IMG/VR virus record: IMGVR_UViG_3300044667_000075
Location: 32,001 to 96,000 of that record
Length of the DNA: 64,000 nt
From: a virus
Taxonomy: Duplodnaviria; Caudoviricetes
Reading direction: 5' to 3' (one strand)
The notes beneath the pieces were generated by a model. The model was not told the DNA's origin, made no database searches, and saw only the letters and a list, made by a program, of their open reading frames with translations. This document shows, piece after piece, positions 7,289-59,607 of this stretch. The stretch's first letter is position 1. The number at the start of each line of letters is the position of its first letter. The position numbers and the translations under genes are program-made.

Positions 7289-7837
7289 TCAGAGCGCCGT
7301 TTCCATCGCCCCGCGATCGGGCCAGAGCACGGACCAGAAACCTGTTGCGGGCGGTGTCCAGCCACGGGCGTACGGCCGGACAGGAATCCCCGCCTGCCAG
7401 GCGAGAGTCGCGCAATCCGCCCCGCCGTGGGAGCCGTGGGGCTGCCGTCCGCGGCATCTGAACTCGTCGCAGGCGGCGAGGAAGGCTAGGCACTCATCGG
7501 CGCCGGGGGCCACAAGCTTGTCCCTGTTCCGGTAGTGGCCTGCGGCGGGACAGAACTCCCGGCCGTTGCGGCGCTTGCGGCGGTGGCCCGGCTGGCATTC
7601 TTCCCGGCACGGGGCATCCCAGTCGGCCGGGTGGCGTTCGCTGCGGACGCTAGCACCCTGCCGGAGCTGGCGTCTCACCCAGGCGTGGGCCATGACGTCG
7701 GCGCCCTCCGGGCAGGCCCCCTCAATCACGGTCAGGACCGGGTGGGCGGCGAGGATGCCGTCTAGCACGCCGCAGAGGAACGAGTAGTCGCGCCAAGACC
7801 TCGAGCCGGTCACGAGCACACGCCAAGCATCACCCAT
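7289..7837 (-). CDS. SLOG/YspA (DUF2493)-family protein
   Basis: RVLVTGSR, EGACPEGAD, HPADW, AAGHYRN. Confidence 0.8.
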   Translation of the reverse strand: MGDAWRVLVTGSRSWRDYSFLCGVLDGILAAHPVLTVIEGACPEGADVMAHAWVRRQLRQGASVRSERHPADWDAPCREECQPGHRRKRRNGREFCPAAGHYRNRDKLVAPGADECLAFLAACDEFRCRGRQPHGSHGGADCATLAWQAGIPVRPYARGWTPPATGFWSVLWPDRGAMETAL

Positions 7838-8174
7838 CAGTCGCCCTCCGTTCGCCGGAGAGGTCGCCCAGGGCTTCGATGAGTGCGTCAGCCATCGACT
7901 CGGCCGAGACCTTCCCCGCGACCGGGTGCAGCTCAAGGCGGGCCAAAGCCTCGATCAGTCCGTCACGGGTGAAGGCGTGCAACTCGGGATCGCCGGACGG
8001 GACCCGCCCCCCGGTTAGCCTGTCAATCGTCGCGACCAGTACCGCCACGAGGAAGGGCGGCGGGTCCACGCTGTTGTCCAGCCTCTTCCGCACTAGGGTC
8101 AGCGCGCAACGCTCGGCCGGGAGCAACCCGCTCGGCAGCGGTTCCCGGTCGCTCGGCACGTAGGCATCAGCCAC
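7830..8174 (-). CDS. hypothetical protein
   Basis: coupled ORF. Confidence 0.5.
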   Translation of the reverse strand: MADAYVPSDREPLPSGLLPAERCALTLVRKRLDNSVDPPPFLVAVLVATIDRLTGGRVPSGDPELHAFTRDGLIEALARLELHPVAGKVSAESMADALIEALGDLSGERRATDG

Positions 8175-8436: not shown

Positions 8437-8827
8437 CTGCCGTTCCCTCCATGCCGCTTGTGATGTTCGCCGCGACGCCGAGCCTGTCCTGCAACTGCAT
8501 CGCCAGCGCCGCCGCCTGATCGAGAGCCTGCCACGTGGCAGTGACAGCGGCGTCCACCCGGCCCTCGTACGCGATACCAGCCATCGCCACCCTGCCCGCC
8601 GCGTTCTCCACGGCAAGCCACTGGGACACCTGGCCGAGCAGCTGGGGGAACCGGGACGCCGTGGTCGCTAGGCAGCGGACCAGCCGGTCAACCTCGGACG
8701 GGTACCGGAACGCCTCATGACTCATGGTGGCGTGGTTGAGCACCCGGGCAGCCTCGGCCAGGGCGTCGGCCACCTCCTGGACGTACTCGGGGGTACGAGG
8801 GGCGTCAGTGTCGAGGTTGACGTTCAT
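8423..8827 (-). CDS. hypothetical helical protein
   Basis: ATGA overlap; LAEAARVLNHAT. Confidence 0.6.
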   Translation of the reverse strand: MNVNLDTDAPRTPEYVQEVADALAEAARVLNHATMSHEAFRYPSEVDRLVRCLATTASRFPQLLGQVSQWLAVENAAGRVAMAGIAYEGRVDAAVTATWQALDQAAALAMQLQDRLGVAANITSGMEGTADDDR

Positions 8828-9537
8828 GGGTTCGTTCCTATCGCGGTGTGGACGTGGGCGGCCAGCCCGGACCCTCGCCAGAGGAAGTACCCGAGCACGG
8901 CCAGCAGGAGCAGCAGCCCCGGCGTGACGAGCCACCGCTCAGCAGCATGCCCAGTAGTGAACCGTAGCGGCCGGGGAAGCGCATGGAAGTCCCGCAGGGT
9001 CACGGGCCAGAGCAACGGGATCCCGCAGTCGGTCATGGCGTCGCCGGCAAGGTGCGTCGCCGCGCCCAAGGCGGCGGCGAGCGGGACCAGGGCCAGCCCG
9101 TAGCCGGTCACCATCATGGCCGCAGCCGCGCCGATGCCGAGCACGGACTCGAACGTGGCCGGGCCGGGACGCAGAGCGTCCGCCGCAGCGGCTATGCCCG
9201 CGGCGAGGAACACGGCCAGGGCGATCCGACCGGGCCAGGTGCCCCGGAACGCGCAGGCAAGCCACGCCGCACCTGTGAACGCGGCGACACCAGCGAGTGA
9301 GTGGGTTCCGTGACGATGACCGCCGCTGACCGCGCGGACCACCCAGGCGAGAACGTAGGTCACGAAGCCGTACGACCGGGCCTCAGTCGAACCACAGGAG
9401 TCCAAATCGGGTGCCAGGGCGTAGGCGGCAGTCAGGCCAGCCAGCACCGCCAGTTGGCCCGCAGGCTCATGCATGACCAGGGAACCGGCAGCGAGTCCTG
9501 TGACGACGCCGCTAAGGCAATGCGATCTTCCTAGCAT
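8824..9537 (-). CDS. membrane-bound metal-dependent hydrolase (YdjM-like)
   Basis: GRSH, PDLD, HRHGTHS, HLAGD..T..GIPLLWP. Confidence 0.85.
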   Translation of the reverse strand: MLGRSHCLSGVVTGLAAGSLVMHEPAGQLAVLAGLTAAYALAPDLDSCGSTEARSYGFVTYVLAWVVRAVSGGHRHGTHSLAGVAAFTGAAWLACAFRGTWPGRIALAVFLAAGIAAAADALRPGPATFESVLGIGAAAAMMVTGYGLALVPLAAALGAATHLAGDAMTDCGIPLLWPVTLRDFHALPRPLRFTTGHAAERWLVTPGLLLLLAVLGYFLWRGSGLAAHVHTAIGTNP

Positions 9538-10106
9538 CAGGACTCACCGCCAGCAGCGGCGAGGGCCGGACGCTTGCAGCCCAGATCGCCATAGTGCAGG
9601 TTGAGCCAGCAGGCAAACCGGTAAATCCACGGCGTGCACATGATCAGGGTGAGGGCTGCCATCGGAAGCAGCGTGCTCAGCATAGGAACCAGAGCTACGC
9701 GGGCGATCACTAGAACATAGGCGGCGGCCACCGAATGCGCAGGCAGCGCCGTCCAGAGGGCGGCGGCCACTAGGCCCGGCAATGCGCCCGCGATGATCCA
9801 GGCCGCGCAGATGCTGATCACCTTCTCGGAGTCGGGCAGGCCCTCCGGCTCAGGTGGCCGGACTGCGCCCGCGACATTGAACCGTGGACTCTCGCCACGG
9901 ATCGCACGGGTCTCAGCGGCCCGCGCCGCTCGCTCGCTGTCATACCAAGTGACGGCCTGATGCTGGACCTGCGGGTACCACGGCGCGTTCAGTACGTGCT
10001 CGCGCCATCTGCGCCACGGGTCGTTACTGATCCCGACGTAGAGCAGATCTTCGTGGTCATCGTAGAAGCGGTACAGCGCGTATCTGGTCTCAGTGGCGCA
10101 GATCAT
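9537..10106 (-). CDS. GIY-YIG nuclease fused to C-terminal TM helices
   Basis: ALYRF...LLYVGIS...R..EH...E..AI..E.P.FN then two hydrophobic segments. Confidence 0.75.
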   Translation of the reverse strand: MICATETRYALYRFYDDHEDLLYVGISNDPWRRWREHVLNAPWYPQVQHQAVTWYDSERAARAAETRAIRGESPRFNVAGAVRPPEPEGLPDSEKVISICAAWIIAGALPGLVAAALWTALPAHSVAAAYVLVIARVALVPMLSTLLPMAALTLIMCTPWIYRFACWLNLHYGDLGCKRPALAAAGGES

Positions 10107-10975
10107 CGTGCCGGCTCCTGGCTATCGACGGCATCCGCCGGGGCAGGTTTCCGTAGCCGGGCGATCTGCCGCCCACGGCTGTCGGTGAGCCCCGCGCGGA
10201 TGCCAGCCTTCGAAGCGCTCAGGCCCTTGTCGAGATACCAGAGCACCTTAGCCTCGCTGTCAAGATCGGCCGGAGCGTCCTCATCGGGGGTATCTGCGGG
10301 GGCGGTAATGGTGCCCGGCTCCGGGGCGGTAGCGGACCCGGTAACGGGGTCCGGTTTCCGGCCGGTAGCGCGAGGGGATTTCCGGCCGGTAGCGGCACGC
10401 CGTTTCTGGGTGGTAGTGGCCTCCAGTTTCCGGGCCAGCGTTTCCGCCTTCGCTACCGCCTCATCCCGTTCCCCGCTCACGGCAGTGAGTCCGGAAACGG
10501 CCTCGGCGAGATCGGCCCTGAGCGCGTCCATCTCGGCTTGCACGGCGGTCCGCTCACCGGTCGCTGCGGCGGCTTCCCGGTCAAGCCGCCGCAGGTGTAT
10601 CAGGACCGCGATAAGCGCCAGCACGACCACCGGGAGATCCTTGACGAACACTGACAGCCATAGCGGAGGCTTGGCTGTCGCCGCGAGAATGGACGCCCCC
10701 TGGCCGACCAGGCTGAGGGTGAGCGTGGCGATTGCCGACCACATGGCACACCGCCGGGACCGGAGGCCGGGGGCGTCGAACCAGGCGAACAGGAAGTACC
10801 CGGCCGCAGCCTCCACGATGACGGTGAGAGTCCATCCGGTGCCGGTATGGCCGACTGCGAACCCCGACTTGTCACCGACCTGGGCCCACGCTCCCCACAC
10901 ATCAAACAGGGCGAAGGCTGCGATGACGAACAGCACCCATAGGTGATCTCTGCGCTTGGGTGTCATGGCGTTCAT
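10103..10975 (-). CDS. Spd-like membrane protein (4 TM, coiled coil, C-terminal HTH)
   Basis: architecture and position downstream of traB. Confidence 0.6.
   Translation of the reverse strand: MNAMTPKRRDHLWVLFVIAAFALFDVWGAWAQVGDKSGFAVGHTGTGWTLTVIVEAAAGYFLFAWFDAPGLRSRRCAMWSAIATLTLSLVGQGASILAATAKPPLWLSVFVKDLPVVVLALIAVLIHLRRLDREAAAATGERTAVQAEMDALRADLAEAVSGLTAVSGERDEAVAKAETLARKLEATTTQKRRAATGRKSPRATGRKPDPVTGSATAPEPGTITAPADTPDEDAPADLDSEAKVLWYLDKGLSASKAGIRAGLTDSRGRQIARLRKPAPADAVDSQEPAR
10304..10433. repeat. phased 8-bp repeat array GGTARYGG plus a 16-bp direct repeat
   Basis: copies at 10304, 10328, 10340, 10364, 10388, 10412; TTTCCGGCCGGTAGCG at 10355 and 10379. Confidence 0.75.
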
Positions 10976-11011
10976 GGTCGTCCTGTCTGGGTCGTCGGGC
11001 AGGTAGGCGTG

Positions 11012-11167
11012 CTAGATGCTGCTGGCGAACGTGCCGAGGGCGTTGGCGGCGTGGCTGGCCAGCGTGCCGAGGTTGTGGACCGCCCCGGCTGCGGCGTGGG
11101 GCTGCTCGATGACCCACCACAGGGCGAAGGCGATGGCGACCCACCAGCCGATCCGCTTGAGGTTCAC
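11012..11167 (-). CDS. 51-aa membrane protein (not in ORF track)
   Basis: MNLKRIGWWVAIAFALWWVIEQPHAAAGAVHNLG...; RBS GGGAGG. Confidence 0.75.
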   Translation of the reverse strand: MNLKRIGWWVAIAFALWWVIEQPHAAAGAVHNLGTLASHAANALGTFASSI

Positions 11168-11185
11168 GGCCGGTCCTCCCTTGCT

Positions 11186-11380
11186 TGTCAGACAGCTCGT
11201 GTCTTGTTTGTCATGGTTTGCGGGTGGCTGTCAGACAGCGACCCGAGCCGGTCGGCGTCCTGTTTGCACCGATTTGTCCGGGCCGTCTGACGGTGTATCC
11301 TCGCGCGCGCGCGCGTACGCGGGATCGCACGTAGGGCGGGTCATTCTCTGGACCGCGCCGTCTCTCCCGCTGTCAGACAC
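11186..11380. repeat. four YGTCWGACR palindromes
   Basis: TGTCAGACA at 11186, 11229, 11371; CCGTCTGACGG at 11283. Confidence 0.65.
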
Positions 11381-11614
11381 CGCCACACGGCCACGCCCCT
11401 GCGCGAGCCCGGCCGCCCGCTCGTCCAGCCGCTCAGCCGCGCCCGCGATCTGACGCGCCACCGCGTCCGTCACCGCATCCGACGGATGCGCCGCGCGCAG
11501 CCAGTCGTAAGCCGCGGACAGCCGCGCCGCGGGTGTCGCCGCGGCCTCGTACCGCGCCCGCATGTCCTCCATCCGGCGCTCGGCCCGTGCTCGCGCCCTG
11601 GCCGACCCACTCAT
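11231..11614 (-). CDS. hypothetical protein
   Basis: ATGA-coupled to traB; RLSAAYDWLR. Confidence 0.55.
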   Translation of the reverse strand: MSGSARARARAERRMEDMRARYEAAATPAARLSAAYDWLRAAHPSDAVTDAVARQIAGAAERLDERAAGLAQGRGRVAVSDSGRDGAVQRMTRPTCDPAYARAREDTPSDGPDKSVQTGRRPARVAV

Positions 11615-14055
11615 GCCGCCACCCGCTCGGTCACCGTGTAGATGCCTTCCAGGCGGTCGTTCTCAACCAGGCCCTCGATCGCAAGGGTGGTGGACAGCTC
11701 GCCGCGGATCCACGCCGGGGACTTGCCGGTCGCCGCGCACGCCCGCTCATAAATGTCCCGCGGCCGGAACTCCCGGCCAGGACCAAGCTCGGCGAGCAGG
11801 TGCCGCAGCGCGGCCAGCGCATCGTCCCGGCTGACCTGCGGCCTGGCCGGGCGGGAGAAGTCCAGGGCGTCCACGTCCGGGTCACCGGGCGGGATGGGCT
11901 TGCGGGGGTCGATGTCGTCATCCTCGCCGAGCCCGGCCATCAGGTCCGCGTCATCGATGTCCAGTTCGTCAAAGGTCACGGGAGGGTCCTCTCCGTCGTC
12001 TACGAGCTCGGCCACGAAAATCTCGTCCTCGTCTTTCATCCGCTCGGGGCCGCGGCGGGGGAGGTCCCGCACCTCGGCAAGCGGCTCGTCATCTTCGGGC
12101 TCCACGTCCACAGCCGGGGCAGCCTTGGGGGTGCTGCGGGCGGCCTTGCGCCGGTCGGCGGCGGCCATCTTCTCCAGCACCGCCGCGCCGGTCGTCCGGT
12201 TCGCGTACACCCCGTTCGCGTCGAGCCGGGACAGCATCTCCGCCCAGTCGGGGCAGTTCTCCGCGATCCACGCGTCCCGCGCGGGGGCATACTCGGCGAC
12301 CGTCTCGGAGCAGAATTCCCTGTCGACCTGGAACGAGCGGGGAGCCATCAACTGCCGCTGGAAGTCAATTCCAGCCGCTGACCGGTAGTGCATGCCAGGC
12401 TGGCGGTCCTGCCACATCGACGGGTCGGCGCCAGCGTGCAGCAGTTCGTCCGGCAGGACGAACACGTCGCCCATGTCTTTCACGCCGAACGACAGGGACT
12501 CACCGAACGCCGCGCGGACGTTCGGGTCGACAACCTGGTGCTGGGCCCGCTGGAACGACGCGCGGATCTTCACGCCCGCCGACCGTGCCGAGTTCAGCAC
12601 CTTGTCCAGGTCATCGAGCTCGTTGGCGATGATGCCGCCTTCCTCGATCGTGACCCGCAGGAACGGCAGCCCGCACCCCGGCTCCCAGTTGTCGTAGCCG
12701 TGCATGCCGAGGTAATTGGCCCGCTCGGGGATGACGTAGCGGGCAAGGAAGCGGACCATCGCCTTGGATTCAGCGACGTCGGGCGCGAACCAGTCCAGCG
12801 CGCCGGCGACGCAGCCGAGGGTCTGGAACTTCTTCACCGGGTCCGCGGCCCAGTCCACCACGTCGAGGCGGGTGGCCCCGTCAGCGATGACGATGCGGAC
12901 CACCGTGGACTTCCCGGATCCGGTCATGCCCTCCGAGATGATATGGCTCAGGTTCCGCTCGGGTATGCCGAGACGGCGCGACATGTCCTCGGTGACCGCG
13001 GTCTCCCACGACTCCTCGTACATCCGGTCCTCATAGATCCCGATCCGGACGGGGGCGTCCGCAATCGACTTCCCGACCGCTTGCGGGCCGGGCCAGTGCC
13101 GGACGGTCTCCAGAACGTTCTCCAGGACGAAATCCAGGAACACGCGGGAATGGTTCAGCGGGTCCGGGCGGATGATCACCGATGACGCCGGGAGGGCCAT
13201 CTGGGAAGCCATGTGCTCCCGGTAGTCGGTCAGGTGCTTGGGGATCTGCACGCCGCGGATCAGGTTGACCTGGGTGCGGATCCGCCATGGCTTCACGTCG
13301 AGGAGCTTGATCCGGGCGCCGTTCAGGTCGGTGACCTTCCGGGCGGTGAAGTCCCTGAAGTTCTTCAGGATCGCCTGCGCCGCCTGGTCGGCCCGCACTG
13401 CGGCGGCAGCGTCCACGTGGTCGGCGGACGGCCCGGCCGTGATCGCCTTCGGCGAGCCCGCGGCCTCGAGCGGTTCCGGTGCCGGCTCCCGCCACGGCGA
13501 CGCCAGCGCCGGGACGACCTTGCCGCCCTTCTCGGCGAGCATGCGGATGTGCGGGACGCGCCCGGCGAGGACCCGGATCACGTAGTCCACGTCGACCCGC
13601 TTGCCGCGCAGCTGCCGGTGCTGGCCGATGACGTCTTCCACGCCGTCGCTGTGCTGGGAGTACCGCAGGTTCCACGTCAGGGTCATGACCAGGCCGACGA
13701 TGAACCACAGGACCAGCAGCAGGCCATGGCCGGCGGTCCAGCCGAGCCCGGTCACCGCAGCGACCCAGCCGACCCCGAGCAGGGAATTCAGGGCGTGATG
13801 CACCCGGCCGAACCCGCGGGAATGGGTGAGCCGCCACGTCAGGTGCGCCAGCAGCAGCGACGAGCACGCCAGCAGCCACGCGACCAGCGTCCCGTACCCG
13901 GTGCCCTTCGCCAGCCCCGACGCCGCGGCGGCGGCGACCGGCTCCCCGATCAGCCACACGATCCACGGGGTCAGGCCGCGGGCGAACTTCGCCCACTGCT
14001 CCTCAGCCGCGCTGGACAGGTTGACGTTCAGCGCGGCGCTCCTGCGAGCGGCCAT
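11611..14055 (-). CDS. traB: TraB-like FtsK/SpoIIIE conjugative DNA translocase
   Basis: N-terminal 4 TM, Walker A GMTGSGKS, Walker B VTIEEG, ARSAG..QR, C-terminal winged helix. Confidence 0.8.
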   Translation of the reverse strand: MAARRSAALNVNLSSAAEEQWAKFARGLTPWIVWLIGEPVAAAAASGLAKGTGYGTLVAWLLACSSLLLAHLTWRLTHSRGFGRVHHALNSLLGVGWVAAVTGLGWTAGHGLLLVLWFIVGLVMTLTWNLRYSQHSDGVEDVIGQHRQLRGKRVDVDYVIRVLAGRVPHIRMLAEKGGKVVPALASPWREPAPEPLEAAGSPKAITAGPSADHVDAAAAVRADQAAQAILKNFRDFTARKVTDLNGARIKLLDVKPWRIRTQVNLIRGVQIPKHLTDYREHMASQMALPASSVIIRPDPLNHSRVFLDFVLENVLETVRHWPGPQAVGKSIADAPVRIGIYEDRMYEESWETAVTEDMSRRLGIPERNLSHIISEGMTGSGKSTVVRIVIADGATRLDVVDWAADPVKKFQTLGCVAGALDWFAPDVAESKAMVRFLARYVIPERANYLGMHGYDNWEPGCGLPFLRVTIEEGGIIANELDDLDKVLNSARSAGVKIRASFQRAQHQVVDPNVRAAFGESLSFGVKDMGDVFVLPDELLHAGADPSMWQDRQPGMHYRSAAGIDFQRQLMAPRSFQVDREFCSETVAEYAPARDAWIAENCPDWAEMLSRLDANGVYANRTTGAAVLEKMAAADRRKAARSTPKAAPAVDVEPEDDEPLAEVRDLPRRGPERMKDEDEIFVAELVDDGEDPPVTFDELDIDDADLMAGLGEDDDIDPRKPIPPGDPDVDALDFSRPARPQVSRDDALAALRHLLAELGPGREFRPRDIYERACAATGKSPAWIRGELSTTLAIEGLVENDRLEGIYTVTERVAA

Positions 14056-14061
14056 GACGGG

Positions 14062-14424
14062 TCAGTCCTTCCAGGAGAACGAGCGCTTGGCGTGGCCGCC
14101 GGCGGACTTGGCGCGGGACAGTTCCTCGGCGAACGCCTTAAGGAACAGCCGGTACACCATGACGCACCGTTTAGCGGCCATCAGGTCCAGGGACACGGCG
14201 TGCTTCAGGGGCCGGGTCACCTGCTTGGCGCGGCGGCGGGAACCCATGTCCAGGTGCCGCAGCGCCTCGGACACTTCGAACTCGGCGTACCCGGTGACCT
14301 CGGCGACCTGGATGTGCAGGACGCGGAGCAGCTCGGACAGGTAGCGGAGGTCGGCGGGGCTCGTGACGGTGAGCGACCCGATCTCCTTGGCGACCTGCCC
14401 GATGTCGGAGGGGATGTCAGGCAT
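14062..14424 (-). CDS. TraA-like plasmid transfer protein
   Basis: small basic helical protein (RRAKQVTRPLKHA...F..EL) immediately upstream of traB. Confidence 0.55.
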   Translation of the reverse strand: MPDIPSDIGQVAKEIGSLTVTSPADLRYLSELLRVLHIQVAEVTGYAEFEVSEALRHLDMGSRRRAKQVTRPLKHAVSLDLMAAKRCVMVYRLFLKAFAEELSRAKSAGGHAKRSFSWKD

Positions 14425-14713
14425 GGCAGGGCTCCTTTGCATAAGCGGGGATGGTCCCGGCCGCGGCACGGTCGGACATGTCAGAAACGAACCGGGCGGC
14501 AGCGGCTAGGAGGACCCCGGCGCCGCCCGCTGCGCACGCCGCGCAGGCTGCGAGGGTCACCGCCAGGCCAGCGGCGGCCTCGGCAGGTCCGGCGGCATAC
14601 CGGACGCGGGACCAGGCCACGGTGACGGCAAGGTTCAGGTCAGGGACCGACAGCCCGGCAGCAAGGCACGCCAGGACGGCCAGCAGCGTGACCACGACGG
14701 CGAGGGCGTCCAT
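14417..14713 (-). CDS. hydrophobic membrane protein
   Basis: two Ala/Val/Leu-rich segments. Confidence 0.6.
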   Translation of the reverse strand: MDALAVVVTLLAVLACLAAGLSVPDLNLAVTVAWSRVRYAAGPAEAAAGLAVTLAACAACAAGGAGVLLAAAARFVSDMSDRAAAGTIPAYAKEPCHA

Positions 14714-15366
14714 CAGGCACCATCCCTGAGGACGACCTCGGCCACCCGCACGCGCTTCGACGCCAGCATGACGCGGCGGTAAGCCCTCACGAGCGGCCCG
14801 GCGACGTTCCCCGACTCCCGGCCACGCCGCAGGTCCTCGTACGCGCCGTCAATGAGGACGGCCTCATGCGACAAGGCCGACGACAGGCCTGTGAGCATCC
14901 GCTGAAGCGCGGCAGCGATCCGGGCATGTGACTCCGCCGCCATTCCCGGGCCGTGACGGAACCCCGGGATAGCCTCCAGGGCCTCCGCCGCGGCGCGGGC
15001 GGCGGTCGCGGCGGCGGGTTCACGGCGGGACGCCTGACCGCGCGTGTCCCGCACCGTCTCCGCGAGGGCATGCTGCGCGGCGGTTACCTCGCCGGCTGCC
15101 GCGCCCGCGTCGTGGGACGCGTCGCACAGGACCGCGAACAGGTCACTTCCCGCGGTGCTGCGCATGTCCCGTACGGCGACCGCCGCGCATTCCAGGGCGT
15201 CCCGTACGCCCTGGGCGCAGCGTTCCAGGCCGAGGACGACCGGTTCGTGGCCGGCGAGGCTCAGCGCGCGGTTCCGCGCGGACGGCTGCGCCTTCCGGGC
15301 GAGATCCGCCAGGGCTTCCGCCGCAGCGTCGTACATGCCGGTCACGTTGACGGCCGTGCTGGTCAT
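14713..15366 (-). CDS. hypothetical helical protein
   Basis: own RBS GAGGAG and ATG at 15366 inside long track ORF. Confidence 0.6.
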   Translation of the reverse strand: MTSTAVNVTGMYDAAAEALADLARKAQPSARNRALSLAGHEPVVLGLERCAQGVRDALECAAVAVRDMRSTAGSDLFAVLCDASHDAGAAAGEVTAAQHALAETVRDTRGQASRREPAAATAARAAAEALEAIPGFRHGPGMAAESHARIAAALQRMLTGLSSALSHEAVLIDGAYEDLRRGRESGNVAGPLVRAYRRVMLASKRVRVAEVVLRDGA

Positions 15367-15605
15367 CGCGTGCTCCTCACGGTTGTCCGGGCGGGGATCC
15401 TCCATGCCGGCGCCTTCCGCCTGCGGGGCTTGCGGGCGTGGCGCAGCACCACGATCAGCGCCCGGTCTGTTGCCACTCCCGCCAGGAACAGCCCGGCCGC
15501 GTGGCCCGCCACGCGGGGCAGCAGCAAGTACGCCGCTATCCCCGCCAGGGCGATGATCGCCGCCTCGAGGACGAGGAACTGCCAGGGCAGGCGACGACGG
15601 GACAT
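15363..15605 (-). CDS. 2-TM membrane protein
   Basis: RBS GAGGAG; two TM and basic tail. Confidence 0.6.
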   Translation of the reverse strand: MSRRRLPWQFLVLEAAIIALAGIAAYLLLPRVAGHAAGLFLAGVATDRALIVVLRHARKPRRRKAPAWRIPARTTVRSTR

Positions 15606-16164
15606 CAGGGTTCTCCTCGGGTCGTTCAAGCGCGGCCGTCAGGGTCGGCCACAGCAGGTCATTACGGCCCGGCTCCAGGTCCTCGACATAGACCCACCAG
15701 GCATCAGCGAGTACGAGAGAAGCCCACTCCCCGCGCGCCCCCTTGCCAGGGCACTGCCAGGGGGAGGGATACGGGAACCGGGGGAACCGGCTGCCGCACT
15801 CGTGGACCCGGCCCCGGCACGCGGACAGCTTCAGCGGAGTCCCCGCAACCGCAGCACGCATCCGGGCCACGGCGCCATCAGAGGCGAAACCCGCCACCCA
15901 CGTGTTCCACGACTCGCCATCCACGGTCTCCGCGAGCTGGGAGTTCTCCGTGACGAACCCGTTCCGGTTCAAGGTCGTGAGGGCATCCTTCAGCGGGCCC
16001 GTTTCCGGGTCGGCCGGGGCCGGGTGGCTTGGCGTCCCGCCGACCTCGCCGCGCATCCACGCGATGACAAGCTCGCCGAGATCGGCCATGGACTGCGCGC
16101 CCTTCCACCGGGCGGCGTCCTGCCTGCGCTTGCGGAAGGCGGCAAGGAGATCGCGGGCGCTCAT
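15605..16164 (-). CDS. DUF6919-like protein (stop probably lost to a 1-nt indel)
   Basis: ADLGEL..W, DPET, LNR.GFVT.NSQ, GRNDLLW. Confidence 0.6.
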
Positions 16165-16544
16165 GCTGCTTGCTCCTCTTGCTGGCAGGCGGCCTGGTTG
16201 CGGGCCTGCTTGGCTGCGTCTTTCCGTGCCTGCGCCTCGAGCAGGGCTTCCCGCCGGGCGTAGTACGCCGCGTCGTCCGCGGCGATGATGTCTTCGAGGG
16301 TCTCGCCAGCCTTGAGCCGCTTGGGCATGGCGCGGCGGGGGAATTCGGCGAACCCGCCCCAGATCCCGACGTCGATCGCGTGGTCCAGGGCGTAGGCGAG
16401 GCACGTGACCCGGGATGGGCAGCGGCGGCACACTGACGTGGCCCGGGTCACGTTCTCTCCCGGGCCGGGGAAGAACAGCTCGGGGTCGGTGAACTCGCAG
16501 GGAAGGCCGGTCTGCAGGGCGGCCAGGCTCACGTCGGCGGTCAT
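16161..16544 (-). CDS. whiB: WhiB-family Fe-S transcription factor
   Basis: C..DPELFF..CxxCx5C..GIWGG. Confidence 0.9.
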   Translation of the reverse strand: MTADVSLAALQTGLPCEFTDPELFFPGPGENVTRATSVCRRCPSRVTCLAYALDHAIDVGIWGGFAEFPRRAMPKRLKAGETLEDIIAADDAAYYARREALLEAQARKDAAKQARNQAACQQEEQAA

Positions 16545-16774
16545 TTCTTGCCTCCGCCCTTCTTGCGCAGAGGTGTCAGCGACGCGGACGTCTCGGCCAG
16601 TTTCCCCCGCAGCTTGCCCGCCGCGCGGCGGGCGGAGTCCCGGTCTTCACGGCGGGCTTCCGCTGCGGCGGCCCCGGCGATCCGGCCGAGGCCTCGCCGG
16701 GCCTGGTCGCGGGTGACCAGGCCGCGGTCGATGAACACCTGGAGGGCTGCCCCAAGGTCGGTGGTATCGGCCAT
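16541..16774 (-). CDS. hypothetical protein
   Basis: coupled ORF. Confidence 0.55.
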   Translation of the reverse strand: MADTTDLGAALQVFIDRGLVTRDQARRGLGRIAGAAAAEARREDRDSARRAAGKLRGKLAETSASLTPLRKKGGGKK

Positions 16775-17007
16775 CACGCGGCCCTCCTCTGGGCGGGGAC
16801 CGCGGGCGTCACCGAGAACCTGACTATGACCTTGACCGCCGCGGCGAACTCCTCCTCGGTGATCAGGCCAAGGCGGGACGCCTCGATGATCCGGTCCACG
16901 TGCGGGACGTCCGGGGCATCGGACAGGACGCACGCCCGCTGAGGACGGACCCCGCACAGGCCGCAACGGGCGCCGAGGGCCTTGGTGAAGATCTCGCGGA
17001 GGTCCAT
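16774..17007 (-). CDS. phage zinc-finger protein
   Basis: CGLC..PQRAC..H..R. Confidence 0.6.
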   Translation of the reverse strand: MDLREIFTKALGARCGLCGVRPQRACVLSDAPDVPHVDRIIEASRLGLITEEEFAAAVKVIVRFSVTPAVPAQRRAA

Positions 17008-17234
17008 CACGGCACCGACGCGGCCCTGATCGCGGCCAGGGACCGGTCCAGATGAGCGGCCAGACCAGGACAGGCCAGTTCCGCGGCGGCCAGGTCCGGC
17101 AGGCCGAACTCCTCCAGCAGCGTCTCCGGGTGACCGGAGGACGACAGCAGGACGGACAGTCCCGCAGCGGTCGTCTCCTCGCTGGCCGGGCGTGGCGTCC
17201 GCCGGTAGTCGGCCAGGCGTGTTATGGTGCCCAT
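17007..17234 (-). CDS. hypothetical protein
   Basis: RBS GAAAGG; ITRLADYR. Confidence 0.55.
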   Translation of the reverse strand: MGTITRLADYRRTPRPASEETTAAGLSVLLSSSGHPETLLEEFGLPDLAAAELACPGLAAHLDRSLAAIRAASVP

Positions 17235-17321
17235 GAGTCAGCCTTTCTGTAGGGCTACGGTCGGCATGGCTTCCAGCGGCGCGAGTGTTTCCGGCACCCG
17301 CGCCGCTCTCGTTTGCAGTGA

Positions 17322-17462
17322 CTACCCGTGCACCGGGCAGGGCAGCGGCTTCCCGCACAGCCAGCCCTTCGCGATCTCCGCCGGGCAGTACCCTCCGCAC
17401 TGGACGGGCGGCGGGACCGGGACCTGGGCAGGCAGCGTGGTCAGGGTCATACGGGAGTACAT
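17322..17462 (-). CDS. 46-aa Cys-rich microprotein (not in track)
   Basis: MYSRMTLTT...CGGYC...C...CPVHG; RBS GAAGGGG. Confidence 0.6.
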   Translation of the reverse strand: MYSRMTLTTLPAQVPVPPPVQCGGYCPAEIAKGWLCGKPLPCPVHG

Positions 17463-17570
17463 GGCAATCCCCTTCCTGTGGGTGCCCGCGGAAAAGGCGA
17501 GCTGACGAGGCTCGGGGAAGCTTCGTCATCAGCCCGGCTCTTACGAAGGCACCCGCCAGCAGGGAGGACG

Positions 17571-17678
17571 CTACTTGCCCTTGCTGTTCGGGCACGGGGG
17601 CAGCTTGTCCCCGTGCTTGATGCCGCTGGTGCCGTACTTGCTGTCGCACGACGGGCAGGGCTTCATTCCCATGGTCAT
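17571..17678 (-). CDS. 35-aa CxxC/H/C microprotein (not in track)
   Basis: MTMGMKPCPSCDSKYGTSGIKHGDKLPPCPNSKGK; RBS GAGAGGA. Confidence 0.6.
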   Translation of the reverse strand: MTMGMKPCPSCDSKYGTSGIKHGDKLPPCPNSKGK

Positions 17679-18264
17679 TTCCTCTCGGGGGGATCGTGTA
17701 CGGGGTGCGGGACATCACGGCCACCGCCTGCATTACGGGCTCTGCGATCTCGCGGACCACGGCACCGGGCAGGACCCGGCCGGGCTCCAGCAGCGCGGCG
17801 ACCTGGCCTATCACCGGCCACATCCGCCGGACCAGCGCGCGTGCGCTCTTGCGGGCCGACGCCATCGTCATGTAACCCGAGCACTTCAGGTCCTCGGCGG
17901 CGGCGCGGATATCATCGAGACCGCCCGTCGCATCCGCTTCGGCGCGGGCCGCAGCCAGCGTCATCCCGGACACCTCATGCAGGCGGCGGGCCTCAGCCTC
18001 AGGGCCGGCCAGGCCGGCGACCGCGTGCCACTCCAGTTGGGAGTCCTGGAGCCACGCTCCGCGGCGGCTCGCGGTCATCCGGGTCAGGCCGGACACCTTC
18101 CACTGCCTGCCGCCACGCCACCGGGACTCGATCGTGACGCTGACGGAGTGCAGCGGCAGGCCCGCGACCACGTAGGCAACAGCGTGACCGGCCTCATGCC
18201 AGCACGTCAGGTCCACCTCCGGCGCGAGGTGCTCAGCCACGTGAAGCGGAACGATGGGGGACAT
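17675..18264 (-). CDS. HExxH zinc metallopeptidase (M41/M50-like); 3' end uncertain
   Basis: WHEAGHAV, LAGPEAE, DD; expected stop out of frame at a G6 run. Confidence 0.7.
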
Positions 18265-18266
18265 CC

Positions 18267-18488
18267 TCACCGGCCCCGCTCGCGGTTCGCGGCGATGATC
18301 TGGGCCTTGCGGGCGTCGCGGGCGATCCGCCCGGCCCGCGTGCGGGTGTCGCCGCCGTTCCGCTCCCGGTCCTCGGTGCACACGACACGGTGGCCGCGCT
18401 CGATCAGGTCACCGGGGAGGCTGCCGTAACCCTCATGCATGTCGCCCTGATCCCAGCGGTCGTCACGGGTCTGGGGGGTGCGGGACAT
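18267..18488 (-). CDS. hypothetical protein
   Basis: coupled ORF. Confidence 0.5.
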   Translation of the reverse strand: MSRTPQTRDDRWDQGDMHEGYGSLPGDLIERGHRVVCTEDRERNGGDTRTRAGRIARDARKAQIIAANRERGR

Positions 18489-18489
18489 C

Positions 18490-18684
18490 TCAGGCCGCCC
18501 TCTCTTCTAGCTCGGCCGCGACGCCCGTGAGCCGCGACGCCAGTTCATCGGCTGGGGGAAGCGCCTCATCCAGCAGGCCGGTCAGCACGTGGCTCAGCGC
18601 CTCGCCCTTGACAAGGGCCAGCATGCGCAGGCGCCGGTCAACCGCGGCGGTGATCCGCGTCGCCAGCCGAACGTCGTATGCCAT
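18490..18684 (-). CDS. ribbon-helix-helix protein, first gene of the leftward transfer operon
   Basis: VRLATRITAAVDRRLRMLALVKGEALSHVL. Confidence 0.65.
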   Translation of the reverse strand: MAYDVRLATRITAAVDRRLRMLALVKGEALSHVLTGLLDEALPPADELASRLTGVAAELEERAA

Positions 18685-18738
18685 GGAGCGAGGCCCCTCC
18701 TCGGACGGTGACAGCGTTCCTGTTCGCTGCCTTGCTTG

Positions 18739-18776
18739 CATGTCGCCATGGTGGCACAATGGCGGCATGGAGTCAA
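18739..18776 (-). promoter_or_regulatory. leftward promoter overlapped by an inverted repeat
   Basis: TTGACT-17-CACCAT; CATGTCGCCAT-N9-ATGGCGGCATG. Confidence 0.55.
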
Positions 18777-18853
18777 CCCCCACGCCAGAAGGGAATGCTG
18801 TACCGTGGCGACTATGTGCACAGTGATGCACAGAGTCACGGAAAGGCCCCTAT

Positions 18854-19246
18854 GTGAGCGGACCGAAATACCAGCAGGTCGCGGATGCGGTCCTGGCGAT
18901 GATCGCGTCAGGCGAGATCGGCGACGGGATCACCCTCGGCCGGATCCGGGAACTGACCGGCGCGACGGACGCCACATCCCGCAAGGCCGCGAACGAGCTC
19001 GTGAGCGCAGGGATCCTGGAGAACCACCCCGGAGCCCCCTACACGGTGCGGGTCACCGCCGAAGAGGCCGCTGCGGCGCGGCTGGACAACCGGCCGCTCA
19101 AAGACCAGATAGCCGAGATGCGGCACGAACTGGGCGACCTGCGCCGACGTCTCGGTCACATGGAGGCCGAGCTCGCCACCATGACCGGGAAACCACGCGG
19201 AGGCACCCGTGAGCAGGCAAAGACGGCCAGCGGCGGTCACCGGTAG
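18854..19246 (+). CDS. GntR-family regulator (TraR/KorA-like position)
   Basis: PKYQQVADAV...I.SG...T.RKA..EL...G; divergent from tra operon. Confidence 0.75.
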   Translation: MSGPKYQQVADAVLAMIASGEIGDGITLGRIRELTGATDATSRKAANELVSAGILENHPGAPYTVRVTAEEAAAARLDNRPLKDQIAEMRHELGDLRRRLGHMEAELATMTGKPRGGTREQAKTASGGHR

Positions 19247-24290: not shown

Positions 24291-24686
24291 TTACTCCGGG
24301 GGTTCCGGGATGGGCAGGTCCGCGTCGGAGGCCGCGGCGACGATCAGGCGACGGGGTACGCCTGCGGCGGCTGCGTCCGTGCACAGCCGCTCCCAGTCCT
24401 GCTCGGATTCGCTAGCCCGCCGCTTCGCCGCCGCTGCCTTCCGCGCGCTGGCTCCCAGCTGCCAGCGCCACCGGCCAAGCTCAGCGCCGCTGAGTTCCGG
24501 GGCAGCCTCAGGTGCGGGGCCGGGCGGTTGAGGCCGTGTACGGCGTCCTGACGGCTTCCTGGGCCGTGCTGGCGCGGCGTCGGCCTCCGCCGGGGGAGCG
24601 GCCTCCCCGGCCCCGTCATCGTCTTCTGCGGCGATCTGCTGCTTGAGGAGGTCTCCCATGCCCCGCCGCTGCCGGGCCGCGTTCAC
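24291..24686 (-). CDS. ParA partner protein (atypical ParB-like adaptor)
   Basis: coupled to parA; N-terminal RRGMGDLL. Confidence 0.6.
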   Translation of the reverse strand: MNAARQRRGMGDLLKQQIAAEDDDGAGEAAPPAEADAAPARPRKPSGRRTRPQPPGPAPEAAPELSGAELGRWRWQLGASARKAAAAKRRASESEQDWERLCTDAAAAGVPRRLIVAAASDADLPIPEPPE

Positions 24687-25411
24687 GACGCACCACCGAG
24701 GTTGCGACGGCCGAGGTCAATCAGGAGCTCGGTATGCAGGGCGGCGATGTCCTCCCGGAGTTTCGGCGCGTACCGTTCGTTCCACCGGGTGATCGGCACC
24801 CCCGCCTGGAGGCTGTTGGGCCACGCCCGGTACAAGCGGATCACGGTGCGGAAGTGGCGGATGCCCTGCCGGTCGAGCAGGTCCCACGCGTCCTGGACGA
24901 ACCCGGCGCCATCGGGCCCGATGAGGCGGGGGTCCACCTTGGTCAGCACGACCGCGTACGGCACCCCTGCGGCGGCGACCCGCTTGGCGGTGCGGACGGT
25001 CGGCATGACCGACTCCGGCACGTGGTCGTAGGGGATCAGCACGAACGTGGCCCGCTCGAGCACCTCGTCGAGGACACCCCCGGCATGGTCGAGGGTGCCG
25101 GGGGTGTCGACGTAGATCGAGTCGTAGTCGCGGACTTGGCTGATCCGGGTCAGCTGCTTCGGGTCGAGCTCGTGGATCACGTCGTAGCCGGGGTCGCTCA
25201 TGGCCTGGGTGAGGTCGTAGGCGTTGGCCTGGGGGTCGGTGTCCGCGACGAGGGCCCGGCCGTGGGCGGCGGACGTGTGGGCGGCCAGCTGCATGATGGT
25301 GGCGGTCTTGCCTGAGCCGCCTTTGCCGTTGAGGGCCGCGATGACATAACTGTCCGTTTGCCGGGCATTCCCGGGGAGTGCGCCGCTCTGGGCGGTGGCA
25401 TGGGTTGTCAT
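24683..25411 (-). CDS. parA: ParA partition ATPase
   Basis: NGKGGSGKT, DTDPQAN, VDTPG. Confidence 0.92.
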   Translation of the reverse strand: MTTHATAQSGALPGNARQTDSYVIAALNGKGGSGKTATIMQLAAHTSAAHGRALVADTDPQANAYDLTQAMSDPGYDVIHELDPKQLTRISQVRDYDSIYVDTPGTLDHAGGVLDEVLERATFVLIPYDHVPESVMPTVRTAKRVAAAGVPYAVVLTKVDPRLIGPDGAGFVQDAWDLLDRQGIRHFRTVIRLYRAWPNSLQAGVPITRWNERYAPKLREDIAALHTELLIDLGRRNLGGAS

Positions 25412-25548
25412 GGGCGGCATCGTCGCATAGCGCGGCGGCCAGGTGAAGGCGTGCGGTAAGGTTTCGGGCTGGATACCGGGACCCTTGGCGGCCCTCTGTC
25501 TCGTTCCTGCGGAGGGCCGCCGCGGGGGTCTGAACCGTGGGGGGTTCG

Positions 25549-25731
25549 ATGGGCGAGGATGAGCGGTCAGCCGAGACACCGGAAGAGACGCACGTGGCCG
25601 GCCTGCTGTCGGGATTAATCCGAGGCGACAGCGACAGTGAAGTCACCCTTTCGGGCCGCTGCGGGCAGTGCGGGTACCAGAGGGGATCGCGGTCGTGCGT
25701 GGTGGTGTGCGGCGAGGAACCGCAGCCTTAG
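25549..25731 (+). CDS. small Cys-rich protein
   Basis: CGQCGY...C...C. Confidence 0.45.
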   Translation: MGEDERSAETPEETHVAGLLSGLIRGDSDSEVTLSGRCGQCGYQRGSRSCVVVCGEEPQP

Positions 25732-25913: not shown

Positions 25914-25990
25914 TGCGTACCCCCTCAATCACTTAGCGTACCGGCCCGGCGTGCCCGGTGCCTGACAGAGGGGGGCGTTACCGTGCGGGC

Positions 25991-26314: not shown

Positions 26315-26331
26315 GAGTTCCGTCACCTGCA

Positions 26332-43395: not shown

Positions 43396-44319
43396 ATGCC
43401 GGCGGGGGAGCTTCACATCCAGCTCGCGGTCAACTTCCCGAACAACCCGAAGGTCCGCAGCCTGGTCCGCCACGGCCGCGACGTGAGGGCGCTCCGGGAC
43501 CTGTACGTCGGGATGCTCCTGTACTGCAAGGGGTCACTGACGGACGGCTTCGTGCCCGACGAGCAGATAGGGCTGCTGGTCTACCCGGACACCGAGAAGA
43601 ACGGGCAGCGGGACGCCGGGCGCCTGGCCGAGGCGGGGCTCTGCGAACGGGGTGTCAATGGCTGGCAGGTCACAGGGTGGTTCGACCGTAACCCGAGCCG
43701 GGCCGCAGTGGAGGAGAAGTCCGCAGCGAAGGCCCGCGGGGCCAAGCTTGCCAACCATCGCCGCTGGCACGTCGAGCAAGGCCACTTTGATGGCCGCTGC
43801 CAGTGGTGCCTGGCGGAGGTGGATCAGTACACCGATCAGACTACTGATCAGAACACTGATCGAAGTAGAGATCAGAGTACAGATCAGAACAGTGTCAGTA
43901 GCCGGATCGGTGCTGTGAAACGGTCTGACTCCACAGAGACAGAGTCAGAGACAGAGTCAGAGAAAGAAGAAAAACATCTTGGCCGGCCAGAGCCGGCCGG
44001 CAGCCGGATCGAACCTGGCTCAGACGACGATCCAGACTTCGCCGCGTTCTGGGAGGCATACCCGCGGAAGGTCGCCAAGGGCCAGGCCCGCAAGGCGTGG
44101 AAGACCGCGGTCGTCAAGCGGGGCGTAGACCCGAAGGTCGTCATCCTCGGCGCCGAACGCTACCGCGACGACCGGGACCGGCTGTCACAGCCGATTAACT
44201 ACACCAAGCACCCCGGCACATGGCTCAATGCCGAATGCTGGCTCGAACAGCAGGACGACGAGCAGGCCGGTAACGGCCAAGTCCGGTTCAGCTACCCGAC
44301 CTCACCCTGGGCGAACTGA
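43396..44319 (+). CDS. phage replication initiator (Rep/O-like)
   Basis: FWEAYPRKVAK..A.KAW, HPGTWLN; internal iterons. Confidence 0.8.
   Translation: MPAGELHIQLAVNFPNNPKVRSLVRHGRDVRALRDLYVGMLLYCKGSLTDGFVPDEQIGLLVYPDTEKNGQRDAGRLAEAGLCERGVNGWQVTGWFDRNPSRAAVEEKSAAKARGAKLANHRRWHVEQGHFDGRCQWCLAEVDQYTDQTTDQNTDRSRDQSTDQNSVSSRIGAVKRSDSTETESETESEKEEKHLGRPEPAGSRIEPGSDDDPDFAAFWEAYPRKVAKGQARKAWKTAVVKRGVDPKVVILGAERYRDDRDRLSQPINYTKHPGTWLNAECWLEQQDDEQAGNGQVRFSYPTSPWAN
43822..43962. repeat. iterons / putative lytic origin inside rep
   Basis: GATC at exact 12-bp period (43822, 43834, 43846, 43858, 43870, 43882), then (ACAGAG/TCAGAG)n and an A-rich tract. Confidence 0.75.
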
Positions 44320-58213: not shown

Positions 58214-58549
58214 TCATAGCTCGTCTTCTCGGCCGGTGGCCATGAGGTTGATCGCCAGGGCCATGCGGCGTGCATCCAACTGGCCGCCGTACCAGCGTTC
58301 GGTGATCACGTCGTTCGGCTGTGTCAGCACGTCATAGACGAATCGCTGCTCAAGAGTCTCCATGCCTTCGCGATGCCAGTAGCTCCGCACGGTCTCGAAC
58401 GGATCCGAGTGGCCGAGGTTGGAGGAGATGGCGCCGAGCTGGATCAGCACCTCACCCAGCCTGAAAGGGTCGAGGCGAAACACCGGCATGTGATGGTCTG
58501 GCGCTACAGCCATGGAGGACGGTTCAGGCTGGCAGGTCATGTCGGTCAC
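58214..58549 (-). CDS. hypothetical protein
   Basis: GTGA-coupled to recombinase. Confidence 0.55.
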   Translation of the reverse strand: MTDMTCQPEPSSMAVAPDHHMPVFRLDPFRLGEVLIQLGAISSNLGHSDPFETVRSYWHREGMETLEQRFVYDVLTQPNDVITERWYGGQLDARRMALAINLMATGREDEL

Positions 58550-59607
58550 AGGCCGACTCCTCTCATCGGGTGGTTCTTCCATTTGTCGACGGCCCGGACG
58601 TAGCCGAGCACGACGGGGGAGTTCTCGGCCCACCGTCCGTGCCCGGCGATACCGGAGACTGGTGCCCCGGTCGCGTAGGCGGCGGACGCTCCGCCGCTGC
58701 GCAGTGAGTGGCCCTTGTACTTGGAGGCGTTTTCCAGCCCGGCGGCGAGCGCGCGGCGGCGGATGATCTCGGCGACGGAGTGACCGGTCAGCCGGTCGCC
58801 TCCCTTGCCTGCCGCTTTCGGCTCGTTGCCGATCCGGCCGTGCCGGTCGACGGGACGGAACAGGGCGCCGGACGTGATGCCACGGTCGGCCAGGAGCGCG
58901 ATCCATGCTTGCGTGGCGCGGACGGGGCATGTCTCGGGGTGCTGGCCGTTCAGGACCGGCACCTCTTGCCCCTTGGCTTCCTGGTCGGTCTTGGACTGTC
59001 GGATGGTGACGTCGAGTCCTTCCTGGCCGGGCCGAATGTCGGCGATGTCCAGCGCGGCGAGCTCGGAGCGGCGGGCCATCAGGGCGAAGCCGAGCAGCAG
59101 GAGCGCCCGGTCCCGGACACCGATCGGGGTGGCCGGGTCGCAGGTGTCCACCATGGCGCGGAGGGCGTCGATCATGACGGGGGGTGCTTTGCGGACCCGG
59201 TTGCCTGCCTTGACCCACTGGCGGCGGTAGGCGCGGAGGACCCGGCGGGATGGCTTGATGCCGGGCTGGTCCTCGTAGCCGCGTTCGGCGTGGATGGCAC
59301 GGATGGAACCCATGGCCCGGTCGATGCTCGCGGGTGCGGCGGGCTTGGGTTTCTCCATCATCCAGGTCACGTAGTCGAGGAGCGTCTGGGCGGTGGCGGG
59401 GAGCGCGACCCGGCCGTGCTGCTCGCACCATGTGGTGAAGTTGCCCCAGTCGTAGCCGTGGGCGAGGAGGGTGTTCTCGGCGGGGGCGGCGAGGAGCCGT
59501 TCGGCGGCGGCGGCGCTGATGGTGAAGTCGGCGTCGGTGTACCCGGCCGGGGCTGGCTCTGCCGGGCGGATGACGACCGGTCGCGCGGCCGGTACGAGTT
59601 CGCTCAT
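58546..59607 (-). CDS. Cre-like tyrosine recombinase/resolvase
   Basis: RDRALLL.G...RRSEL, SKTDQ, GHSLRSG, HGRW, GY; no arm-binding N-domain. Confidence 0.92.
   Translation of the reverse strand: MSELVPAARPVVIRPAEPAPAGYTDADFTISAAAAERLLAAPAENTLLAHGYDWGNFTTWCEQHGRVALPATAQTLLDYVTWMMEKPKPAAPASIDRAMGSIRAIHAERGYEDQPGIKPSRRVLRAYRRQWVKAGNRVRKAPPVMIDALRAMVDTCDPATPIGVRDRALLLLGFALMARRSELAALDIADIRPGQEGLDVTIRQSKTDQEAKGQEVPVLNGQHPETCPVRATQAWIALLADRGITSGALFRPVDRHGRIGNEPKAAGKGGDRLTGHSVAEIIRRRALAAGLENASKYKGHSLRSGGASAAYATGAPVSGIAGHGRWAENSPVVLGYVRAVDKWKNHPMRGVGL

Follow-up and report, generated by a model that had tools for sequence, protein, structure and literature searches.

A plasmid-type TraB transfer module with a clt-like site in a candidate conjugative phage-plasmid of an actinomycete

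TraB and the site downstream of its gene

The 64-kb window analysed here (bases 32001-96000 of the 125,263-bp virus record IMGVR_UViG_3300044667_000075; coordinates without a prefix are those of the window) holds a set of transfer (tra) genes of the kind known from Streptomyces plasmids. They lie in a siphovirus-type temperate element of ~125 kb from a high-GC actinomycete, which is known here from the sequence of its virus record alone. The main features of this tra module are the following.

11611..14055, minus strand: TraB, an 814-aa membrane-anchored FtsK-type double-stranded DNA (dsDNA) translocase with a C-terminal winged helix (NF041214)
14062..14424, minus strand: TraA-like gene directly upstream of traB (NF041213 plasmid_TraA, E 1.1e-6)
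11185-11195, 11228-11238 and 11370-11380: three CTGTCWGACAG-type near-palindromes of a clt-like cis site, with a GC-rich core at ~11295-11340 between them
18854..19246, plus strand: short (130 aa), divergently oriented GntR-type winged helix-turn-helix (HTH) regulator, a candidate TraR/KorA-like repressor (Pfam GntR, E 1e-5)

The 814-aa protein matched the NCBIfam model NF041214 (plasmid_TraB) with an E-value of 2.9e-90 and 303.6 bits over profile positions 129-633 of 639, and no other family of that collection; Pfam gave no match at all, and neither Pfam nor NCBIfam gave one to FtsK or EccC. Among PHROGs it belongs to phrog_24831 (E 2e-61), which carries the label 'unknown function'. By tblastn the protein matched 51 actinomycete plasmids, in many of which the gene is annotated as traB, with 30-35% identity over the motor, and none of 50,697 phage records. 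Residues 376-383 form a Walker A motif (GMTGSGKS), the N-terminus has hydrophobic helices or transmembrane (TM) segments, and E471/E472 are invariant across the clade of relatives described below. Because a profile search against PDB sequences returned FtsK only at E 0.5, the fold was tested structurally. An AlphaFold model (predicted local distance difference test, pLDDT, 79) contains four N-terminal helices (16-132), an alpha/beta motor (216-640) and a winged helix (743-808) that is preceded by a disordered acidic linker. Foldseek ranked the FtsK motor first (E 4e-14), followed by the conjugation coupling protein TcpA, with EssC/EccC far behind; matches to the latter are at least five orders of magnitude weaker than those to FtsK and cover a single ATPase domain.

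A search of 5.8 billion proteins yielded a clade of ~36 full-length relatives, 36-63% identical and mostly metagenomic. In the tree, this clade of ~800-aa TraBs is monophyletic (Shimodaira-Hasegawa-like approximate likelihood ratio test, SH-aLRT, 100) and separate from the classical plasmid TraBs, among which the TraB-like proteins of nine IMG/VR contigs occupy at least three further positions; a terminase is also encoded by four or five of these nine records. An earlier reading of this DNA, made from its letters alone and referred to here as the sequence-only reading, had proposed a plasmid-type translocase. This identity is upheld by the exclusive NCBIfam match and the tree, which group the protein with plasmid TraB and not with FtsK or EccC; the fold ranking places TcpA after the FtsK motor and ahead of EssC/EccC, and the C-terminal domain is a winged HTH of the TraB type beside a clt-like site.

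Two further observations concern the clade itself. Three of its proteins (P0018, P0026 and P0037) are 1138-1224 aa long and match LAGLIDADG_3 (PF14528), which suggests inteins, a common feature of phage genes. Furthermore, contig 52 of Planobispora siamensis carries, downstream of traB, a 257-aa open reading frame (ORF; L008 14249-15019) with a domain that resembles the TraB winged helix and is 54% identical to residues 733-834 of the TraB of Planobispora; here the DNA-recognition domain has a paralogue of its own outside the translocase.

Allowing one mismatch, CTGTCWGACAG has only three matches in the window, all of them 230-430 bp past the traB stop codon. The same layout of repeats, core and repeats follows traB in nine elements (this one and eight relatives), with a core close to CCCTAYGCGCGNGCGCGAGG, and in five of the nine the repeats begin directly after traB, with no small gene between. 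The repeat type varies by element: TGTCWGACA in most, a CTGCCTAGGCAG-type in the related contigs L020 and L022, and CTGTTWAACAG in Planobispora. Repeat types were also predicted blind for three unseen contigs from the sequence of the TraB recognition helix, and the predictions held. As switches in repeat type are few and follow the tree, this amounts to weak evidence of covariation, and the comparison with plasmids carries more weight.

The position of these repeats is that of known clt sites. The published CCGCACA repeat of pJV1 and pSN22 starts 5-7 bp after traB (motif from PMC3583192), and in pRL1, pCQ3 and an Amycolatopsis plasmid traB is immediately followed by CTGACA[CG]C repeats that surround the same core. 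Transfer of pWTY27 depends on a 175-bp clt at the 3' end of tra, within which four TGACACC repeats were footprinted with the Tra protein (PMC3583192). By position, and by a TGACA core in common with plasmid clt sites, the cluster at 11185-11380 is therefore clt-like, and TraB is the protein predicted to bind it.

Alternatively, the repeats could bind a small SpdA-like protein, in the manner of sps sites (PMC4170104), or a regulator. The SpdA2/sps stability system of pIJ101 likewise has two to three copies of a short palindrome, situated within or alongside a small gene that adjoins the transfer genes (PMC4170104). However, the sps palindrome of pIJ101 is CGTCACGTGACG, which differs from CTGTCWGACAG (PMC4170104), no SpdA homologue was found here, and no constant small gene accompanies the repeats. 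It is less likely that they serve as GntR operators: the motif is absent from the divergent region between the GntR gene and the tra genes, and some relatives have the repeats but lack a GntR gene in the vicinity.

A different cluster, of CGCTACCG, lies at 10327-10451 inside the gene of a 290-aa protein and comprises three direct copies and one inverted copy, twice extended to CGCTACCGGCCGGAAA; CGCTACCG occurs only 12 times in the genome. It was considered as the clt but gave way to the conserved site immediately downstream of traB; its sequence encodes a repeated ATGRK peptide. A division of the clt-like repeats into three 'types' was likewise given up as too fine, the type of contig L019 being a variant of TGTCWGACA.

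The TraA-like protein scores 28.9 bits against NF041213, for which the cut-off is 80, and this copy has no Pfam match. It is, however, 40% identical to the gene at the equivalent position in the related contig L018, and its place directly before traB is that of traA in pJV1 and pSN22. In L019 the position is taken by a 117-aa gene with a weak match to PF28214 (TraA-like). Profile hidden Markov models thus give a strong match to the family for the TraB of the earlier reading and a weak one for its TraA, both with scores below the cut-offs of their models. The GntR-type regulator, which had been described as divergent from the tra genes, is indeed so placed; its Pfam score of 25.5 bits lies just under the gathering score of 27, it has weak matches to GntR families of NCBIfam, it is devoid of a UTRA domain, and no operator for it was identified. 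Divergent GntR genes flank traA-traB in pJV1 and pSN22, and likewise in L018, L021 and L022, and control of the tra genes by this protein would be in keeping with such an arrangement.

The module as a whole shares with pJV1, pSN22, pWTY27, pRL1 and pCQ3 the layout of a divergent GntR-type gene, a TraA-type gene directly before traB, and a repeat-rich clt or clt-like site at or just after the traB stop. Its TraB has the N-terminal TM segments, FtsK-type motor and C-terminal winged HTH of Streptomyces plasmid TraBs, and its repeats have the TGACA-type and GC-rich central cores seen in pRL1, pCQ3 and the Amycolatopsis plasmid. This TraB exceeds the plasmid proteins in length by ~130-170 aa, is 30-35% identical to them over the motor only, and forms part of a separate sister clade; its site has near-palindromes of 11 bp as repeats, and the module is housed in a 125-kb phage genome instead of a small plasmid or an actinomycete integrative and conjugative element (AICE).

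The surrounding phage genome and related elements

CheckV rates the record as 100% complete. Its first 195 bases (1-195) recur at its end (125069-125263) with one mismatch, which accounts for the linear class assigned to it in IMG/VR. When the ends are merged through this overlap, an intact ORF for a 744-aa beta-helix, tailspike-like protein is obtained, with a GC content at third codon positions (GC3) of 0.90. As the ends close in this way, the genome is circular or terminally redundant, with a length of ~125,068 bp; the junction itself falls within the tailspike-like gene. A closed circle fits, without proving it, a plasmid state in lysogens. The GC content is ~69% across the genome, with no compositional break at the tra module, and the sole tRNA of the element, a tRNA-Ser (GCT), lies at genome 95996-96070 (L003 996-1070), just past the right end of the window.

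Outside the window the record encodes a major head protein (phrog_1650, E 1.4e-71), a portal, a large terminase (TerL), a minor head protein, a 1488-aa tape measure, a Dit-like protein, fibre proteins and an Ig-domain candidate for the major tail protein. Together with the endolysin, a full set of virion, packaging and lysis genes is present, with the caveat that the portal frame is split (see below), and such a set would be expected to produce particles. Inside the window, genes for lysis and for plasmid maintenance were recognised as follows.

5796-6581: amidase-type endolysin
24683..25420, minus strand: ParA-type partition ATPase (AAA_31 E 3.9e-10, CbiA E 3.3e-9)
43396..44319, plus strand: replication initiator, Rep (phrog_270 and others, E 8e-19)
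58546..59625, minus strand: Cre-like tyrosine recombinase (PF00589, E 9e-8)

The Rep gene contains 12-bp tandem repeats (iterons) at 43822-43967. The solved relatives of the recombinase are variants of P1 Cre only (E 1.4e-10), and its gene gives the single PF00589 match in the genome, in which serine recombinases were not searched separately. ERF, DUF5131, a C5 methylase and an AAA_25 helicase-type protein are also encoded in the window. The sequence-only reading had listed a lysin, ERF, Rep with iterons, a helicase, parA and a Cre-like recombinase, all of which were found, and the virion genes that it had left to be looked for in the rest of the contig are there. The element combines the full genome of a tailed phage with P1-like functions of a plasmid prophage, namely Rep with iterons, ParA and a Cre-like recombinase.

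The earlier reading had further held that the module is native to the element, having no integrase, RepSA or att ends of its own. We found no att-like direct repeats better than chance flanking the tra block and no tRNA within ~50 kb, nor does the module have an integrase or Rep of its own; the only tyrosine recombinase sits 40 kb away. Single-sequence searches with the locus in viral and genome collections found nothing, so an alignment of the TraB clade was used as the query instead. In every neighbourhood that we examined (at least seven related contigs), the block of TraA-like gene, TraB, repeats, TM protein and YdjM lies among phage-type genes, the TM protein being a DUF2637 protein in three of them. 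The phage-type neighbours of the block in six of these contigs are as follows.

L018: RecT/YqaJ and terminase
L019: Amidase_2
L020: YqaJ
L021: ERF and DUF5131
L022: Endonuclease_7
L023: Mu-type portal, 6 kb away

The flanking YdjM, WhiB and DUF6919 genes also recur among the phage genes of relatives from independent samples, and a small terminase-like gene is common to this element and L018. The samples behind the relatives come from several sources (JGI, Logan, ENA and NCBI), which makes a chimeric assembly improbable. The absence of a second integrase and of att repeats, and the presence of the same block among phage genes in at least seven contigs, argue that the module is native, in line with the separate TraB clade and the uniform GC content. 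The capsid and terminase of this element were not found in five other TraB-bearing records, which are therefore not of the same phage lineage. A cultured handle on the lineage is possibly available in contig 52 of Planobispora siamensis NBRC 107568, which carries a TraB of the clade (43% identical) along with an HK97-type capsid gene and a terminase homologue, but which has no terminal overlap and hence is not shown to be one replicon.

The leftward array and its frame disruptions

The GC content by codon position reveals an unbroken leftward array from ~18.7 kb to 7.3 kb, in which many starts and stops overlap by 1-8 nt. Besides traA and traB, it contains the genes below, listed from right to left.

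17700..18264, minus strand: ORF with a HEAGH (HExxH) motif in its translation
16161..16544, minus strand: WhiB-like transcription factor (phrog_472 WhiB, E 1.1e-17)
15640..16164, minus strand: DUF6919 protein (PF21897, E 2.8e-20)
14417..14713, minus strand: 98-aa small membrane protein with hydrophobic segments, overlapping traA by 8 nt
11231..11614, minus strand: small ORF (127 aa) overlapping the traB stop (ATGA) and reaching into the clt-like repeats; L024 shares the conserved N-terminal ~75 aa
11012..11167, minus strand: 51-aa hydrophobic protein after the clt-like site (GC3 0.98)
10103..10975, minus strand: 290-aa protein with N-terminal TM segments, a coiled-coil middle and an HTH-like C-terminal end, occupying the DUF2637/Spd position
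9537..10106, minus strand: GIY-YIG domain (PF01541, E 6.8e-6) fused to a C-terminal membrane region with TM segments
8824..9537, minus strand: YdjM-family membrane protein (PF04307, E 1.5e-18)
7289..7936, minus strand: SLOG (YAcAr) protein at the distal end of the array (PF10686, E 1.8e-13)

The HExxH ORF has no match in Pfam, NCBIfam or PHROGs, and the small ORF at the traB stop has no family match. Several of the other genes have counterparts in relatives: the DUF6919 family is also encoded upstream of traB in L020, L022 and the contig of clade protein P0022; L022 has small genes after the repeats that are similar to that of the 51-aa protein; and YdjM, 48% identical to its L018 homologue, lies downstream of TraB in L018, L019, L021 and L022. 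The position of the 290-aa protein is held by DUF2637 proteins in L018, L022 and L023. Its alignment with the proteins of relatives is weak (hhalign E 0.005, probability 7%), and a protein atlas offers leads only, to DUF2637 and SpdB_N + HTH_23 clusters (~0.8), the nearest atlas cluster being 91% viral. Of the array proposed by the sequence-only reading, the TraA-like protein, TraB, the small membrane proteins and a protein with TM, coiled-coil and HTH parts were all recovered, at or near the positions that it gave, while the Spd homology of the last was not established. Similarly, its coupling of the module to WhiB and SLOG genes stands in so far as both genes are present and the genes of the array overlap. 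WhiB is no marker of a phage, however, because the plain plasmid pRL1 also carries a WhiB homologue upstream of its TraB, as does L018.

Three reading frames in the record are disrupted. The DUF6919 gene (near 15607) and the HExxH ORF (near 17690) have no stop codon of their own, which gives rise to spurious ORFs of 572 aa (14713-16431) and 535 aa (16774-18381); we rejected these as single genes, as they are composites of several. In both genes the codon bias collapses right after a short C-run (CCC and CCCCCC; 15600-15640 and 17680-17715, minus strand), and adding one base at these runs creates stops that overlap the start of the next gene (CCCTGATG and AAATGA). The portal is split over two frames at genome 25163-26615 (L002 10163-11615), with a plausible N-terminal part at 26310-26615 and the body at 25163-26371. 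Given that very long ORFs are intact, the disruptions look like assembly indels; the stop losses are probably homopolymer indels of the assembly, or possibly the result of -1 slippage. No TTA codon is present in the 19,279 codons of confident genes.

Two proposed transmission routes and their alternatives

What, then, is such a module doing in a phage? On balance we think it likely that the element is a complete phage-plasmid with a native dsDNA transfer module of the Streptomyces-plasmid type and two transmission routes, virions and contact-dependent transfer, and that it can probably spread in virions as well as by pumping DNA from cell to cell. From gene content, homologies, fold, closure, cis element and linkage we infer a course in which the lysogen would hold the element extrachromosomally and TraB would form hexamers in the membrane. 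Their C-terminal winged helices would recognise the repeat cluster just downstream of traB, and the motor would drive the plasmid-prophage, as double-stranded DNA, through septa and into an adjacent hypha, with the membrane proteins of the module helping its spread within the mycelium. Production of virions by the same element would provide the other route.

Several points weigh against this interpretation. The matches fall short of the thresholds of their models, with 303 against 800 bits (the equivalog cut-off) for TraB, 29 against 80 for TraA and 25.5 against 27 for GntR. The covariation of repeat type with the TraB recognition helix comes down to one or two evolutionary switches, and the repeats are near-palindromic, unlike the directional 8-bp TraB recognition sequences (TRS) of pSVH1; binding of an SpdA-like protein or a regulator to them, as discussed above, would count in the same direction. 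The 290-aa Spd-like protein has no significant family match (none in Pfam, and the weak hhalign result), and the Cre-like recombinase is compatible with chromosomal integration. Finally, unless they are assembly indels, the split portal and the two genes without a stop may mean that the particle route or parts of the module have decayed.

The concept of a conjugative plasmid-phage is already published, for pZL12 in 2010 and pFP4 in 2012, and this element is a separate, recurrent lineage. In the accounts that cite them, pZL12 and pFP4 are reported to undergo conjugation in the episomal state and to give rise to infective particles (PMC3583192, PMC4170104; for the content of the pZL12 study, Zhong et al. 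2010, as cited in PMC3583192, PMC4487206 and PMC4170104). Like pZL12 and pFP4 (Chen et al. 2012; pFP4 compared by description only), the present element is circular, comes from a mycelial actinomycete and has tailed-phage structural genes, partition genes and an FtsK-like tra gene. The sequence of pZL12 (GQ919031, deposited as Streptomyces phage ZL12) encodes phage structural proteins, ParAB, an FtsK/SpoIIIE-like protein with adjacent membrane-protein genes and a divergent GntR. Its Tra (pZL12.71c), however, is a remote P-loop relative (BLASTP E 0.02) that reaches 20 bits on the TraB model compared with 303 here. Neither the capsid nor the TraB of this element matched pZL12 by tblastn (the terminase was searched against plasmids only), and pZL12 has both ParA and ParB, whereas only ParA was recognised here. 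The element also resembles P1, likewise a temperate tailed phage of large size that has plasmid replication functions, a ParA-type ATPase for partition and a Cre-type recombinase. Unlike this element, P1 has no conjugation functions and comes from an unrelated host phylum, and homology between the two is shown only for the recombinase. Homologues of SpdB2 on actinophages were noted by Thoma et al. 2015 (PMC4447253).

A less far-reaching role for the module is conceivable, in which TraB, the clt and the membrane proteins mainly move phage or prophage DNA across the septal cross-walls of already infected mycelium and not into a separate recipient; it would then amount to a means by which a virus spreads between the cells of its multicellular host. 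The largely viral atlas cluster nearest to the 290-aa protein and a TraB clade that seems tied to phage contexts would suit such a function, and sequence does not separate septal from donor-recipient use. In all studied plasmids, however, TraB and clt also mediate transfer from donor to recipient (PMC3583192, PMC4447253), and pZL12 is reported to conjugate, for which reason we regard an exclusively or mainly septal role as unlikely. It seems more doubtful still that the element is a conjugative plasmid with a decaying, no longer productive set of prophage genes, in which only conjugation works. While P1-like elements that lost the phage route have been described (PMC12282955), and the split portal and the two further disruptions in the region of the module would fit such a loss, the other large structural genes are intact (the 1488-aa tape measure, proteins of 1477 aa and 1068 aa, TerL and the major capsid protein), two of the disruptions lie at short C-runs, as expected of assembly indels, and CheckV rates the record complete. 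That the module arrived only recently, as an AICE or a piece of a plasmid that recombined into one phage, or is a product of chimeric assembly, is very improbable: TraA-TraB-clt with a divergent GntR does make up a self-contained plasmid module, and phage-plasmids exchange genes with plasmids (PMC12282955), but against this stand the lack of an integrase, Rep or att repeat of the module's own and of a nearby tRNA, the uniform GC content, the recurrence of the block with YdjM, WhiB and DUF6919 among phage genes of independent contigs, a TraB clade of its own, and the small terminase-like gene shared with L018.

Returning to the phage-plasmid with two routes, the combination is not a one-off, as a TraA-TraB-clt module of the canonical kind has been conserved in phages of a recurrent lineage. 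We tentatively propose, as a conjecture that could well turn out otherwise, that TraB and clt form the ancestral core of an undescribed family of large actinomycete temperate phages or phage-plasmids (at least 29 TraBs, some with inteins), and that other viral lineages acquired plasmid-type TraBs independently. Our literature search found no paper describing TraB-bearing phages as a group. Standard tools miss such elements because TraB systems have no relaxase or type IV secretion system (T4SS): in PLSDB, MOB-suite typing lists 40 of the 51 TraB-matching plasmids as 'non-mobilizable' and the other 11 as 'mobilizable'. This blindness of relaxase- and T4SS-based tools to TraB-type conjugation may be why such phage-plasmids go unnoticed.

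If the conjecture of such a family is true, it would run counter to the view, stated for phage-plasmids in a 2025 review, that neither phage-plasmids nor prophages are conjugative. In plasmid theory, transfer by virions and conjugation are treated as alternative strategies, a view that the little-known pZL12 and pFP4 already contradict. Contact-dependent pumping of dsDNA would then be a regular second route of transmission or spreading for viruses of mycelial bacteria. If functional, the module would give the virus a path through its multicellular host and into phage-resistant neighbours, and up to 125 kb of DNA would be carried between actinomycetes by two routes.

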